A stretch of DNA of 26,144 bases from a candidate division FCPU426 bacterium (GTDB lineage: Bacteria > Oederibacteriota > JAAXVQ01 > JAUVAV01), in assembly GCA_030637655.1 (NCBI GenBank), contig DAOWGI010000038.1:1-26144 (forward strand), read 5' to 3'. Under the pieces are notes generated by a model. It had not been told where the DNA came from. It was given only the letters and a program-made list of their open reading frames with translations, and ran no database searches. This document shows, piece by piece, positions 5,439 to 17,380 of the stretch. The position numbers were made by a program, and so were the translations under genes. Each line of letters opens with the position of its first letter. Position 1 is the stretch's first letter.

Positions 5439-5459
5439 TAACTGTTGCTGCGTTTAGCC

Positions 5460-5496
5460 AAAAGGCAGGTGGGTATGTATCCCCCACCTGCCTTTT
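5460..5496 (+). terminator. Rho-independent terminator
   Basis: AAAAGGCAGGTGGG-N9-CCCACCTGCCTTTT, 21 nt after the stop codon. Confidence 0.88.
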
Positions 5497-5561
5497 GTGT
5501 GCACCCGGCAGGGTGTACCTGCTGGAAGGTGAAGGGGGGGGCGGTATGGAGTTCTCCTTCA

Positions 5562-5797
5562 TTAACAGATCAGTCATGATTTTTTTTGTTTGTCATCCCC
5601 GAATGCTTGTATCCCCGATAAGAGCATTCGAGGACGGATACGGTTTAAAAAACCAGATTCCTGCCGAATGCGTCCCTATATATCTTTTCCGGTCGGGGCC
5701 GATTAAATCCTCGGGCTGCGTCAGCGTCCCTTTTCGATATTTTTCCGGTCGGGGAATGACAATCTTTGTTTAACTGCGCAGTTTACTGACATGATAC
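5562..5797 (-). mobile_element. MITE-like element copy A (expanded by nested insertions), inverted relative to copy B
   Basis: Matches the reverse complement of 17250-17373 apart from three insertions and a few substitutions. Ends TTAACAGATCAGT / ACTGACATGATAC. Flanking direct repeat TCCTTCA at 5555-5561 and 5799-5805. Confidence 0.85.
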
Positions 5798-5989
5798 TTC
5801 CTTCAACTCATTGAGATTGACGAAAGACAGAGGAAAGTGATAGGTAGAATGCTTAAAGAAGAATTGGAAGCATTCAAAAGTGGTATGCCTACTCGAAAGT
5901 ATGTTAGTATGGCAAAAGCGAGTAGAGCAACTGCATTTAGGGAACTTGGTAATTTAGTTAAAAAGGGTTCCTCCGCAGCCCTGACCTGA
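5795..5989 (+). pseudogene. C-terminal remnant of a Fic/DUF4172-type protein (winged-helix tail)
   Basis: Frame starting at 5801 reads LQLIEIDERQRKVIGRMLKEELEAFKSGMPTRKYVSMAKASRATAFRELGNLVKKG, which resembles the NERQ.KV...F.GG.T..KY.S..K.SRATA.REL..LV.KG tail of such proteins. The N-terminal part and Fic motif are absent. Not in the ORF track. Confidence 0.7.
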
Positions 5990-6095
5990 GAAATTATTGA
6001 AAAGTTAGGACGCTTCGCTGCAGACGGAAATCTCCCGCGAAAAACAAGGACAAGCAGGACAAAAATATCACAGGCGTGAGCCTGTGGAGTTTTAT
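5965..6095 (-). mobile_element. Probable non-autonomous IS200/IS605-family remnant (one end hairpin)
   Basis: Perfect hairpin CACAGGC-GTGA-GCCTGTG (6069-6086) followed by GAGTTT, the style of IS200/IS605 subterminal palindromes. Fic similarity stops where this GC-richer segment starts. Family assignment is from recall only. Confidence 0.5.
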
Positions 6096-6130
6096 TAATA
6101 AGGAGGGATAAGAAAATTAAAATCAACAAA

Positions 6131-7913: not shown

Positions 7914-7943
7914 TTGACAGGTACAATCTATATTTTATACATT
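7914..7943 (+). promoter_or_regulatory. Candidate sigma70 promoter for the methyltransferase/GT-C operon
   Basis: TTGACA (7914-7919), 18-nt spacer, TACATT (7938-7943). Confidence 0.4.
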
Positions 7944-7971
7944 GTAGGGGCGACCGGCCGGTTGCCCCTAC
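7944..7971. repeat. GTAG-family REP palindrome
   Basis: GTAGGGGCGACCGGCCGGTTGCCCCTAC, a 28-nt palindrome with one G:T pair. Confidence 0.85.
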
Positions 7972-7986
7972 ATAAATATTAAATAT

Positions 7987-8760
7987 TTGGACATGGTTAT
8001 GGAAAAACAGATTTATCAGGCCTTGGCCAATGCGGGGAGCCGTTACTGGTGGAATCAGGGGCGGCAGTATTTGGTCACACAATTATTTAAAAAATATAGC
8101 CGGGCTAAAACGAATTTTGAAGCTCCGCTGCGGATTCTGGATATCGGCTGCGCGGCCGGCGGGACTTTGTTTTATCTTTCGCAGTGGGGAGAGATATGGG
8201 GCCTGGATATTTCTTCCGAGGCCATTGCTCTGTGTGAATTCCGGGGCATACCTCAAGAGCGCTTGGTACTGGGCAATGCTGAATCCATGATGCAGTTTGA
8301 GGAGCAAAGCTTTGATCTGGTTACTGCAGTTGAAATATTGGAGCATTTAGAGCATCCGGAAAAAGCCTTGCGGGAAATCTTAAGGGTTCTCAAACCCGGG
8401 GGTACCTTGATTATTACAGTGCCGGCAGATATGAAGCTCTGGAGTGAGCGGGATGAGCGTTTGGGGCATAGGCACAGGTATACGGTCGCGGATTTAATTG
8501 CTTCAGTAGCACAAGCGGATTTTGAGGTGCTGAAAGCATCGTATGCTAATGTTTTTTATTATTGGCCCTTTCGTTTTTTATTACGGCTGCGGCGAAATCG
8601 GTCCGGTAAAGCGCCTAAGGTGAAGACCAACACTTTGGATATGAATTCGTTGGTAAATTGGTTTTTTGTGCAGTTGTTAAAAATTGAGACCTGGATTATT
8701 TTACGGGGACAATGGCAGCGCGGGGTCTCGGCAATATGCATAGCAAGGAAAAAGGCGTAA
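7987..8760 (+). CDS. Class I SAM-dependent methyltransferase (glycan-locus type)
   Basis: ILDIGCAAGG, GLDIS, FDLVTAVEILEHL, RVLKPGG, WSERDERLGHRHRY. Start is probably ATG 7993 or 7999. Confidence 0.9.
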   Translation: MDMVMEKQIYQALANAGSRYWWNQGRQYLVTQLFKKYSRAKTNFEAPLRILDIGCAAGGTLFYLSQWGEIWGLDISSEAIALCEFRGIPQERLVLGNAESMMQFEEQSFDLVTAVEILEHLEHPEKALREILRVLKPGGTLIITVPADMKLWSERDERLGHRHRYTVADLIASVAQADFEVLKASYANVFYYWPFRFLLRLRRNRSGKAPKVKTNTLDMNSLVNWFFVQLLKIETWIILRGQWQRGVSAICIARKKA

Positions 8761-8770
8761 GGAATAAAAT

Positions 8771-8833
8771 GTAGGGGCGAATTGCGTTCGCCCTATTCAA
8801 TAAATTGTAAGGGCGAGGTGACCTCGCCCCTAC
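8771..8833. repeat. GTAG-family REP doublet (REPIN)
   Basis: GTAGGGGCGAA-TTGCG-TTCGCCC, an AT-rich spacer, then GGGCGAGGTGACCTCGCCCCTAC in inverted orientation. Confidence 0.85.
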
Positions 8834-17242: not shown

Positions 17243-17380
17243 GTAACGGGTCAGTAAACTGCGCAGTTAAACAAAGATTGTCATTCCCGAGGGTTTAATC
17301 GGGAATCTGGTTTTTTAAACCGTATCCCCGATAAGAGCATTCGGGGATGACAAACAAAAAAAGCATGACTGACATATTAC
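17243..17380 (+). mobile_element. MITE-like element copy B (compact, 138 bp) carrying a GTCAT-type REP doublet
   Basis: Ends GTAACGGGTCAGT / ACTGACATATTAC (10/13 inverted match). Flanking direct repeat CGTCAGG at 17236-17242 and 17382-17388. Internal GTCATTCCCGA..TCGGGAAT and ATCCCCGA..TCGGGGATGAC (17280-17351). Confidence 0.85.

Follow-up and report, generated by a model that had tools for sequence, protein, structure and literature searches.

A very short non-coding DNA unit that behaves like a mobile element inside the hairpin repeats of one bacterial family

A non-coding unit of 38–45 nt, given its precise presence or absence inside hairpin repeats and its head-to-tail arrays, shows the behaviour of a mobile DNA unit, among the smallest known; no enzyme that would move it was found. 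We recognised the unit in the window, i.e. the whole analysed stretch of 26,144 nt, which belongs to a 3.28-Mb cold-seep MAG (the source genome, G000) assembled into 120 contigs. It is specific to one bacterial family and does not seem to correspond to a described family, judging from searches of Rfam (no gathering-score match in the window, with only weak, chance-level matches in 5500–5850 and only tRNAs in the arrays) and of plasmid and phage collections, in which nothing matched 5577–5800. The observation made in the first-pass annotation, two short inserts in the two arms of one hairpin, is confirmed, and the interpretation given there is partly supported.

The element that carries both inserts, copy A (5571–5790, plus strand; 220 nt), is palindromic and MITE-like, and is built from two inverted TGTC-tagged hairpins and a central A-tract hairpin; as single-stranded DNA, 5577–5800 folds with −31.4 kcal/mol (z = −2.53). 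Along the plus strand, it consists of the left hairpin Ha (5591–5637, TGTC-ATCCCCGA..., delimited by alignment with copy B), the central hairpin Hb (5642–5654, GGTTTAAAAAACC), the outer 5' half of the Hc stem (ATTC, 5657–5660, assigned from the sequence and the fold of copy B), the 17-nt Hc cap CCGATTAAATCCTCGGG (5699–5715, an inner stem CCGA/TCGG plus loop, lying between the inserts) and the right arm AATGACAATCTTTGTTTAACTGCGCAGTTTACTGAC (5755–5790). In GAAT, the partner of ATTC, the G is the final base of insert 2 (5754) and the AAT lies at 5755–5757; GACA in the right arm is the complement of the Hc tag TGTC, and this type of right arm has 87 blast matches in the genome. The empty host element, copy B (17250–17373, minus strand; 124 nt), comprises the three hairpins Ha, Hb and Hc closed by TTGTCAT/ATGACAA and folds with −19.1 kcal/mol (z = −3.81; none of 200 shuffles folds as well). 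The empty form CAGATTC^CCGATTAAACCCTCGGG^AATGAC is present there without mismatches (17280–17309, minus strand; 0 expected in shuffles).

Insert 1 (5661–5698, plus strand; 38 nt, CTGCCGAATGCGTCCCTATATATCTTTTCCGGTCGGGG) belongs to the CCGAAGG/CCGAATG subfamily and occupies site 1 (ATTC^CCGA), and insert 2 (5716–5754, plus strand; 39 nt, CTGCGTCAGCGTCCCTTTTCGATATTTTTCCGGTCGGGG) belongs to the GCGNNAGC subfamily, here GCGTCAGC, and occupies site 2 (TCGGG^AAT). Both are clean gaps in the alignment of copies A and B, where a T/C difference at 5708 is the sole substitution in that stretch, and they split the central hairpin of the host, breaking its stem between the 4th and 5th base pairs. Removal of the inserts restores this part of copy B as originally claimed, whereas the pairwise alignment also shows a change that the claim had not listed, namely, a gain in length of some 20 bases within Ha (~5613–5634). 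This form of Ha is rearranged: it contains an additional inverted arm and loop, is about 20 nt longer than in copy B, and recurs in 6 aligned MITE copies of the genome and upstream of a GIY-YIG gene on contig C11. The exact breakpoint is uncertain by 1 nt (C) at junction 1 and by 3 nt (GGG) at junction 2. Within the window, TTTTCCGGTCGGGG is found in these two inserts only (shuffle mean 0.28; 2 reached in 5 of 100 shuffles). The two inserts point the same way when referred to the host as a whole, but not when referred to the palindromic target at each site, the half-sites of which are mutually complementary. The exact 38-mer of insert 1, with its imperfect CCGAATG, is found at site 1 of 10 host copies, and 14 sister copies have CCGAAGG in place of CCGAATG. 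Because the two inserts come from different subfamilies, each with further copies elsewhere, a simple local duplication, already considered unlikely in the first-pass annotation, is excluded. A further, degenerate unit copy (CTGCAGCGAAGCGTCCTAAC...CAGGTCAGGG; 5979–6023, minus strand; nhmmer E = 0.65), of a type arrayed on contig C64, lies within a repeated stretch (~5960–6100) where contig depth is raised.

Filled and empty copies are both present among paralogues in the genome. Of the 87 host copies, 49 are empty, 31 are filled at site 1 only, 4 at site 2 only and 3 at both, so that site 1 is filled in 34/87 and site 2 in 7/87. Empty, single-filled and double-filled states occur within a sub-lineage of six copies that have the rearranged left hairpin in common (C56 empty; C47, C49 and C77 with only site 1 filled; C43 and C72 with both), in each case with exact boundaries and no target duplication. 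The lack of target duplication is borne out by alignment and by filled and empty paralogues. On the host tree, occupancy required 24 changes, compared to 27.2 ± 2.1 in shuffled data (45/500 shuffles as low), and is not clustered, whereas the type of hairpin cap is clustered (17 changes vs. 23.1 shuffled; 0/500 as low). Insert 2 may be lost via slippage between the 5-nt direct repeats TCGGG.

We consider it extremely improbable that the double-filled form is a chimaera of paralogous repeat copies created by short-read metagenome assembly. Logan contigs of four runs break inside the repeat, which has 30–200 times the depth of its flanks, and none spans copy A from unique flank to unique flank, as would be expected of such a chimaera. 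However, the order insert 1–cap–insert 2 was assembled independently on C43, with substitutions of its own; the junctions are carried by a 109-nt Logan contig of run X4, which covers insert 1 and the cap and reaches into insert 2; and each single-filled state was seen many times. Given its 2 differences, the 109-nt contig may derive from the paralogue on C43, which has the same arrangement. Loose contig ends with empty or differently filled junctions are most simply explained as paralogues.

The proposal that the inserts represent a distinct family of very small units holds: nhmmer found 120 unit matches in the genome at E ≤ 1, of which 77 had E < 0.001. From 5' to 3', the unit consists of a DNA mini-hairpin (GCGNAGC, GCGNNAGC or CCGAAGG), a (C/A)GTCCC box, an A/T-rich spacer of 8–25 nt and a TTCCGGTCGGGG box, and it begins with CTGC or with CGACC/AACC. 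A perfect hairpin of at least 3 bp is adjacent to the box in 65% of 114 distinct 5' segments, compared to 15% of shuffles, and the stems differ in sequence (GCC/GGC, GTC/GAC, AGTCATC/GATGACT). By the definitions of Kimoto and Hirao 2026 (excerpts of PMC13037366), mini-hairpin motifs are GCGTCAGC in insert 2, GCGAAGC in the arrays of the sister genome G005 and CCGAAGG in the versions found in REP loops and at site 1; these excerpts describe GCGNAGC, GCGNNAGC and CCGAAGG as extraordinarily stable DNA mini-hairpins. In the REP-loop version, the long stem is 82.9% paired, no more than in column shuffles, and no covariation was detected.

A stricter search pattern yielded 42 matches in the source genome and 0 in 40 relatives. 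With a looser pattern, there were 71 matches in G000, 29 in G005, 22 in G008, 14 in G003 and 7 in G002, and 0–2 per genome elsewhere among 99 genomes of the phylum, where controls gave 0–3. The four other carriers (7–29 matches each) represent three further genera of the family, and in the other 88 phylum genomes searched the unit did not exceed the control level. Among 185,579 species genomes and metagenome contigs, only chance-level single matches were found, except for the metagenome contigs L046 and L050, which carry the unit in flanks that are not orthologous to the source genome. Across the four genera, both boxes and the mini-hairpin are conserved and the spacer drifts.

Units are located in CGTC/TGTC-tagged hairpin stems, in GTAG REP loops, in other MITE-like hosts, in head-to-tail arrays, at tRNA-Pro ends and in unique sequence. 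The nesting that the annotation called a parasite of a parasite is real, in that units lie inside other hairpin repeats, whereas specific targeting of REP stems does not hold, given the presence of units in GTAG REP loops, arrays, other MITE-like hosts and tRNA-Pro ends. The left flanks of 92 CTGC-type copies are ATTC (34), CGGG (12), GGGG (9), CCGG (6), CGGA (2) and others (29), and no single target rule appears to hold across these copies, 34 of which follow ATTC and ~29 follow ...GG.

These contexts bear on a serious rival to mobility, which we nevertheless regard as unlikely: the unit could be a mosaic module, one among interchangeable arms, caps and units that are shuffled by slippage, unequal crossing-over and gene conversion at TCGGG/TCGGGG, with the composite hosts themselves spreading. 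Modules between ATTC and GAAT all end with CGGG(G), and they occur in various combinations: a unit replaces the cap (C83), two units occur without a cap (C11, C1), a cap is followed by two units (C8), or the order is unit–cap–unit–unit (C45). The outer arms of the host are mosaic as well (ungapped identity of 41–50% in the outer upstream block), uniformity is equal in the unit and in the host core next to it (95% in both), and C43 and C72, although different loci, carry near-identical composite copies. Slippage also fits REP nests that have 4 left and 2 right arms, and a REP with half a unit; the architectures 555533 and 533 are more simply explained by slippage or unequal recombination. Neisserial NIME arrays are likewise thought to grow via recombination, according to parts of PMC1797815. 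However, recombination alone leaves unexplained why the same core is present in hosts as unrelated as SRM stems, GTAG REP loops and unique sequence, why the CTGC...GGGG boundaries are exact at site 1 in spite of just 1 nt of flank homology, the conservation of both boxes across four genera and the arrival of units at three separate tRNA-Pro genes in one lineage.

The last of these observations comes from G005, in which arrays start exactly after ...CCCCGACCA of the tRNA-Pro genes GGG, CGG and UGG (3/3 tRNA-Pro genes) and are fused to them in antisense; one array consists of 13.3 copies of a 42-nt unit that match at 99%, and another, after a tRNA-Pro gene, of 7.5 copies. In the congener G008, the orthologous flanks of the GGG and CGG genes (~80%) align up to the tRNA ends and the array is absent, and no array follows tRNA-Pro in the examined loci of G002, G003, G008 and G009, nor in G000. 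Comparison of these orthologous sites, filled in G005 and empty in G008, demonstrates the gain of units in a sister genus. That such gain, confined to one lineage, affected three tRNA-Pro genes suggests that targeting follows a sequence rule. The 3' box of the unit is the complement of the tRNA-Pro 3' end (CCCCGACCA) bar one base, and the distal end of the array at the GGG gene is a second CCCCGACCAG.

Conceivably, the unit is itself derived from the tRNA-Pro 3' end and trailer, with tRNA-primed or rolling-circle copying (reverse transcription or strand switching) giving concatemers that were later dispersed. This derivation would account for the near-complementarity of the 3' box to CCCCGACCA, for antisense arrays on all three tRNA-Pro genes, for the closing of the GGG-gene array with CCCCGACCAG and for the single unit being a circular permutation of the array repeat. 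However, the tRNA link exists in just one of the unit-carrying genomes examined, and a simpler reading is that the tRNA end is targeted as a mimic of the unit end, so that we consider a tRNA origin very improbable.

A functional cis-element under selection, the spread of which would be secondary, is another explanation, e.g. a signal in single-stranded DNA (primase/ssi-like, or a site for a nuclease or binding protein) or a transcript-processing signal. Conservation of the boxes and mini-hairpin over four genera with a drifting spacer fits such a role, as does the mostly intergenic position of the unit (94 of 120 copies lie between ORFs, 15 inside crude ORFs of at least 100 aa and 11 at contig ends), and the same mini-hairpins are present in single-strand initiation signals (CCGAAGG, RSF1010 ssiA) and phage origins, according to excerpts of PMC13037366. 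Against this explanation, copy number ranges from 0 to ~120 within one family, many copies are degenerate, and long arrays of 13 identical units are unexpected for a regulatory site. Nor is there any rule of orientation relative to neighbouring genes (27 same, 42 opposite) or GC skew (48 copies on the G-rich strand vs. 65, p = 0.13, with replication direction inferred from local skew in the 120-contig assembly). Selection for a cis-function as the main cause is improbable in our estimation.

The reading we lean towards, with a confidence somewhat short of even, is that the unit is a non-autonomous single-stranded DNA element moved in trans. The unit would be processed as single-stranded DNA and cleaved at GGGG^CTGC; copying or pasting would place it on the 3' side of G-rich hairpin feet similar to the 3' end of the unit. 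Targets of this kind would include the end of the unit itself, which would generate arrays, the TCGGG that forms the foot of hairpin caps, and TGGTCGGGG, located opposite the end of tRNA-Pro; site 1 (ATTC^CCGA) falls outside this simple target rule. The actor would be a site- and structure-specific nuclease or transposase encoded elsewhere. Weighing against this reading are the lack of an enzyme linked to the unit, of a significant strand bias, of an evident common target rule and of covariation in the long stem, as well as the constant orientation of the two inserts within the host despite complementary half-sites and the architectures better explained by slippage or unequal recombination. 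A bolder version, possible but on the whole doubtful, is that the 38–45-nt unit is a self-contained mobile single-stranded DNA element, the smallest with ends conserved across genera. Such an element would combine an ultra-stable mini-hairpin with a 12-nt end box and target mimics of its own 3' end, giving rise to self-arrays and to insertions in two classes of hairpin repeats and at tRNA-Pro 3' ends; its mover would be a not yet recognised site-specific single-strand nuclease or transposase.

The first-pass annotation had proposed Y1 (HUH) chemistry. The source genome does have GTAG REPs and RAYT-like genes; it encodes three Y1 proteins (C87, C82 and C60) and four small GIY-YIG proteins (two on C86 and one each on C82 and C11/C76). 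However, a survey of the 15 genomes of the order for two kinds of Y1 gene and two of small GIY-YIG gene revealed none that tracks the unit, and the Y1 mechanism remains conjecture. The 214-aa RAYT type was not found in the unit carriers G005 and G003, and the 335-aa Y1 type is present in 11/11 family genomes, including those free of the unit. Among 12 Y1 loci in 8 genomes, a unit box lies near the gene only at C87 (~320 nt upstream) and in G002 (~1.5 kb away); in the orthologous Y1 loci examined, no unit lies beside the gene, except for the C87 copy itself. The annotation had suggested a search for a Y1 gene bordered by the motif; only the RAYT-like gene at C87 has a copy nearby, which is divergent. 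No RAYT-like gene is flanked by the unit as a cognate gene would be, and phyletic patterns do not match. In 2/16 loci (G000 and G003), the universal 93-aa GIY-YIG gene has a composite of REP and unit at most 400 nt away, which we did not count as an association. In a search for an autonomous parent, obvious transposases were lacking between paired right-arm repeats (for two pairs ~2.9–3.0 kb apart, at the level of ORFs), and no split unit, with a gene between its 5' and 3' halves, was found in the genome.

The origin and spread of REPs, dRS3/NTS and SDRs, abundant as these repeats are, is largely an open question, and the present family offers an unusually clean system: a unit below 50 nt with sharp ends and a single-stranded DNA mini-hairpin, in empty, single and double states within near-identical hosts. 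Three repeat systems are stacked in one genome, namely, GTAG REPs, SRM-like hairpins with Ssn-like genes and the unit, so that oligonucleotides allow a direct test of the pairing of enzyme and hairpin. A dedicated enzyme, should there be one, would be a candidate tool for site-specific work on single-stranded DNA.

Among known systems, the closest to the host, as opposed to the unit, is the CGTC class, with tag variants CGTC (TGTC/CCTC), stems of 8–9 bp starting with A and T, loops of 3–5 nt, and dimers (PMC3733652). Excerpts of PMC11893778 give NTS as CGTCATTCCCGCGMAVGCGGGAATCYRG with ends CYRG, and parts of PMC1797815 give dRS3 as ATTCCC-N8-GGGAAT and describe NIMEs that interleave dRS3 with short RS modules. 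On the minus strand, Hc reads TGTC-ATTCCCGA-GGGTTTAA-TCGGGAAT-CTGG and resembles both NTS and the CGTC families: the tag is present in Hc (TTGTC-ATTCCCGA) and in Ha (TGTC-ATCCCCGA), the 8-bp stem ATTCCCGA/TCGGGAAT has an ATTCCC...GGGAAT core, and CTGG, i.e. C after the palindrome in the form CYRG, follows the stem, whereas the loops, of 8 nt in Hc (TTAAACCC) and 9 nt in Ha, are longer than 3–5 nt. NIMEs (neisserial intergenic mosaic elements) have their RS modules between dRS3 hairpins that are complete; in the present host, it is the hairpin stem itself that is split by the unit. Repeats of the CGTC class (REP/dRS3/NTS/SRM, Ssn-related motifs) have been linked in print to GIY-YIG Ssn nucleases, not to RAYTs, and SsnA reportedly cleaves outside the stem, a few nt upstream of the motif. 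The host is assigned to the dRS3/NTS/SRM class, and from its motifs it is the host hairpin, not the insert, that appears SRM-like. A small GIY-YIG gene flanked by an SRM-like motif is present, its likeness to ssnA consisting in a Pfam GIY-YIG domain match: the 86-aa ORF at C82:30769–31026 is flanked by CGTC-ACCCCGGC-GAAA-GCCGGGGT-CCAG and by an inverted CGTC-ATTCCGGC... hairpin. The C11/C76 GIY-YIG gene is flanked by TGTC-ATCCCCGA hairpins.

The unit resembles GTAG REPs, BIMEs and REPINs as a short, abundant, intergenic hairpin in mosaics with conserved extra motifs, such repeats being handled as single-stranded DNA, as stated in portions of PMC3333891 and PMC3116915. It was rejected as a GTAG REP because it lacks a GTAG tag at the 5' foot, and its boundary G^C differs from the C^T at which E. 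coli TnpA-REP cuts (parts of PMC3333891). With mini-hairpin DNA, the likeness is one of sequence, the 5' module of the unit being exactly such a motif (GCGAAGC, GCGTCAGC, CCGAAGG), although mini-hairpins are a structural motif and not a repeat family; portions of PMC13037366 associate them with priming, and with the start sites of transcription, in the single-stranded DNA of phages and plasmids. A full-text literature search returned no paper that joins 'mini-hairpin' with 'repetitive extragenic palindromic'.

With IS200/IS605 elements, the unit shares hairpin-bearing ends, the lack of target duplication, what may be insertion 3' of a short sequence, and a head-to-tail form equivalent to their circular junction, whereas it differs in the lack of a cognate TnpA and of strand bias and in the apparent lack of a fixed tetra- or pentanucleotide target. 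To our knowledge, it is far smaller than any described IS200/IS605 member or gene-less derivative. For mobility in a unit of less than 50 nt, the closest precedent is provided by the SDRs of Elhai (2008), reportedly dispersed non-coding units of tens of nt that are possibly mobile and nested in other repeats. SDRs are mentioned in passages of PMC3116915, PMC3733652 and PMC2884548. The unit is similar to SDRs in being very short, non-coding and nested in repeats, whereas its lineage and sequence are unrelated, and it is distinguished by a mini-hairpin, two conserved boxes, long arrays and an end that mimics that of tRNA-Pro.

The two inserts reported in the first-pass annotation were found, with the sequence it gave, at positions 5661-5698 (insert 1) and 5716-5754 (insert 2), separated by the 17-nt CCGATTAAATCCTCGGG, and the uninterrupted form, CAGATTC-CCGATTAAACCCTCGGG-AATGAC, lies as described at 17280-17309 on the minus strand. 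These sequences belong to two copies of the same palindromic element, host copy A (5571-5790, plus strand) and host copy B (17250-17373, minus strand); when the copies are aligned, both inserts appear as clean gaps, with neither target duplication nor terminal inverted repeat, as had been claimed, and with boundaries ambiguous by one C at junction 1 and by GGG at junction 2. The statement that removal of the inserts restores copy B except for one substitution is accurate for the enclosed 17-mer, which carries a single base change, but overlooks some 20 further bases in the left hairpin of copy A. An inverted additional arm and loop are present there (5613-5634), yielding the order 5′ arm, loop, 5′ arm, reverse-complemented loop, 3′ arm, which looks like a template-switch or inverted duplication. 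The rearranged hairpin recurs on contigs C43, C47, C49, C56 and C77 and, on C11, upstream of the GIY-YIG gene, and is the marker of a sub-lineage of six host copies. Upstream of copy A, directly 3′ of a 549-aa ORF, there is a terminator-like inverted repeat (5446-5510; 28-nt arms, 79% complementary), and GTAG-type REP palindromes, TGTAGGGGCGACCGGCCGGTTGCCCCTACA and the pair GTAGGGGCGAATTGCGTTCGCCCT/AGGGCGAGGTGACCTCGCCCCTAC, lie on either side of a methyltransferase-like ORF (7987-8760), at 7943-7972 and 8771-8833.

In the source genome, G000 (3,281,327 nt, 120 contigs, 45% G+C, 91.6% complete), both filled and empty forms, which had been proposed as a check, exist among the 87 host copies located through the left anchor: 49 are empty, 31 are occupied at site 1 (ATTC^CCGA), 4 at site 2 (TCGGG^AAT) and 3 at both. 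Every unit is oriented alike relative to the host, as had been noted for the two inserts. Further arrangements include a unit replacing the hairpin cap, a pair of units with no cap, and a cap with two units after it. The clearest presence/absence series comes from the six copies with the rearranged left hairpin, which have exact unit boundaries and different genomic flanks: the copy on C56 is empty, those on C47, C49 and C77 have insert 1 alone, and those on C43 and C72 (the window) have both. Direct repeats of TCGGG stand on either side of insert 2, such that its precise loss through slippage would be possible; insert 1 lacks such repeats. Mapped on a tree built from the host flanks, occupancy of site 1 takes 24 changes, compared with 27.2 ± 2.1 after label shuffling (as few or fewer in 45 of 500 shuffles), and cap type takes 17, compared with 23.1 (as few or fewer in 0 of 500). 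Thus, on this tree, built on about 120 mosaic columns, the filled copies form more than one clade.

The proposal of a family of very small units was borne out by a genome-wide motif search with a profile made from 109 seeds, which gave 120 matches at E ≤ 1 and 77 at E < 0.001. For insert 1, nine further copies are identical and many nearly so; for insert 2, one further copy is identical and several show 95-97% identity. The copies are mostly intergenic. Site-1 context (...GATTC to hairpin cap) accounts for 34 of the 120 matches and the interior of GTAG REP loops for 23; about 20 lie between a CGGG-ending hairpin foot, or a preceding unit, and AATGAC, i.e. at site 2 and comparable positions in further MITE-like hosts. 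The remainder comprise head-to-tail pairs and triplets (C82, C64), other repeats and apparently unique sequence. Common to all copies are (C/A)GTCCC, an A/T-rich spacer and TTCCGGTCGGGG, and 5′ of the box is a short hairpin whose stem varies and whose loop is GNA- or GNNA-type (GCC-GAA-GGC, GC-GAA-GC, GTC-GAAA-GAC, GCC-GTAA-GGC and GC-GTCA-GC in the source genome, AGTCATC-GAA-GATGACT in one sister genome). A perfect hairpin of at least 3 bp adjoins the box in 65% of 114 distinct 5′ segments vs. 15% of shuffles. The 5′ sequences are identical to mini-hairpins described by Kimoto and Hirao 2026 (PMC13037366), namely the extraordinarily stable GCGNAGC and GCGNNAGC, and CCGAAGG, which belongs to the RSF1010 ssiA signal; this identity points to a role of the unit as single-stranded DNA. 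Units in REP loops start with CGACC or AACC-GAAGG and have complementary ends (CGACCG/CGGTCG, GAAG/CTTC); 82.9% of cells pair, vs. 23-55% with partners slid, and in the 2-bp mini-hairpin all 48 of 48 cells pair, with no covariation in the stem above column shuffles.

Some GTAG REPs, such as GTAGGGAACGGTCGCGACCGTTCCCTAC, are empty and some carry a unit between loop and 3′ arm. In the pattern 5533, a complete REP lies within the spacer of a unit that itself lies within another REP. Asymmetric nests (555533, or a REP followed by half a unit and one arm) are also present and show that slippage or unequal recombination between the 13-nt REP arms operates as well. Recombinational shuffling of modules, being clearly also at work, stays the main rival to a mobile unit, if the less probable of the two.

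Targeted insertion finds its strongest evidence at tRNA-Pro genes. In G005, antisense units stand behind all three (GGG, CGG and UGG), the first base falling exactly after ...CCCCGACCA; the GGG array ends distally in a second CCCCGACCAG, and the unit's 3′ box, CCGGTCGGGG, complements the tRNA-Pro end at all but one base. At the GGG and CGG loci of its congener G008, the two compared (the match to the third gene lies at a contig end), alignment at about 80% extends to the tRNA end and resumes downstream, with no array; nor were arrays found at the tRNA-Pro loci retrieved from G002, G003 and G009, or in the source genome. This pattern amounts to a lineage-specific gain at three sites sharing a mimic of the unit end. 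Head-to-tail arrays in G005 and G008 include a 42-nt repeat of 13.3 copies (99% identity), a 44-nt repeat of 4 copies, and 62-nt units with a long 5′ hairpin. Where units adjoin in an array, the terminal GGGG of the first would join with the mini-hairpin and the TCCC of its successor in one longer hairpin, and the single unit would therefore be a circular permutation of the array repeat. Duplicated 23-25-nt tRNA-Pro 3′-end fragments, 150-200 nt downstream of the genes in G003 (C72:555-579) and G009 (C1:1096501-1096523), resemble what small integrated elements might leave, and the ends of tRNA-Pro genes seem to have been targeted repeatedly in this bacterial family. In the source genome, many tRNA genes have a perfect hairpin directly after the CCA end, e.g. 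GATTTTTCGC-TTCG-GCGAAAAAATC or CCATGCACC-ATCG-GGTGCATGG, often followed by AGAGCA, which may be a conserved trailer structure of the lineage.

The strict unit pattern has 42 matches in the source genome and none among 40 relatives; the species-genome and metagenome collections scanned gave single chance-level matches, except for two metagenome contigs with true unit copies in host context, their flanks not orthologous to those of the source genome. The looser pattern TCCC-N6-18-TTCCGGTYGGGG has 71 matches in G000, 29 in G005, 22 in G008, 14 in G003 and 7 in G002, compared with 0-3 for reversed patterns and 0-2 per genome in the other 94 genomes of the phylum searched. Given these counts, the unit is common to four genera of one bacterial family; in no other genome searched did it exceed control level, and three g2 genomes and one g5 genome of the same bacterial family lack it.

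The fold predicted for copy B as single-stranded DNA has three hairpins, closed off by pairing of TTGTCAT with ATGACAA (−19.1 kcal/mol, z −3.81). The left hairpin, TGTC-ATCCCCGA-loop-TCGGGGAT, and the right one, TGTC-ATTCCCGA-GGGTTTAA-TCGGGAAT-CTGG on the minus strand, match the CGTC/TGTC-tagged repeat class of Di Nocera et al. (PMC3733652), although the host loop, at 8 nt, is longer than in the families described. To this class belong neisserial dRS3, ATTCCC-N8-GGGAAT (PMC1797815), and NTS, CGTCATTCCCGCGMAVGCGGGAATCYRG (PMC11893778); Chenal et al. link NTS-like motifs (SRM), often present on the flanks of Ssn genes, to these small GIY-YIG single-strand nucleases. The source genome has four small GIY-YIG ORFs in addition to UvrC. 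One Ssn-like gene, split over overlapping contig ends (C11:16229-16423 and C76:14687-14832), has inverted TGTC-ATCCCCGA hairpins on its flanks, the left of which is the same rearranged hairpin as in copy A, i.e. the left end of the host MITE; another (C82:30769-31026) has CGTC-tagged hairpins of unlike sequence on both sides. Because of its tagged hairpins and their presence beside such genes, the host looks like a gene-less hairpin doublet, and may derive from an Ssn-like gene cassette. A REP, GTAGGGAACGGTC...GACCGTTCCCTAC, is identical across two genera (G003 C233:335-430, G000 C86:16350-16420) and, with a unit, lies within about 130 nt of an orthologous 93-aa GIY-YIG gene in both; with 2 of 16 loci only, this may be chance.

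Among candidate mover genes, small GIY-YIG genes were rejected as their distribution does not track the unit, the 214-aa Y1 type as it was not found in the unit-carrying G005 and G003, and the 335-aa Y1 type as it occurs in all 11 genomes of the bacterial family, including those without the unit. A Y1 gene bordered by the motif had been suggested as something to look for; only the RAYT-like gene on C87 (84.6 bits on NF047646, cut-off 80) has a divergent unit, about 320 nt upstream, and orthologous loci have none. Two other RAYT-like genes, on C60 and C82, score below this cut-off; the former is flanked by its own GTAGAGACGCG REPs. At C60:1-1100, arrays of GTAGAGACGCGATAAATCGCGTCTCTAC REPs flank the RAYT-like ORF, one REP copy lies inside it, and the family match is split in two stretches. 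No unit split around a gene was found in the source genome, and unit strand showed no bias with respect to GC skew (48 vs. 65, p = 0.13); local GC skew in this genome is very strong (mean absolute value 0.10 in 20-kb windows).

The reading that best fits the data, which we hold tentatively and at somewhat less than even confidence, is a non-autonomous unit that is processed as single-stranded DNA. Cutting would occur between GGGG and CTGC, and the unit would be attached 3′ of G-rich hairpin feet resembling its own end, the candidate feet being that end itself, the cap sequence TCGGG and, opposite tRNA-Pro, TGGTCGGGG; neither site 1 nor the constant orientation with respect to the host fits such a simple foot-targeting rule. 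Among the closest precedents for such a unit are the RS modules of neisserial mosaic elements, the additional motifs of BIMEs and, reportedly, the small dispersed repeats of cyanobacteria.
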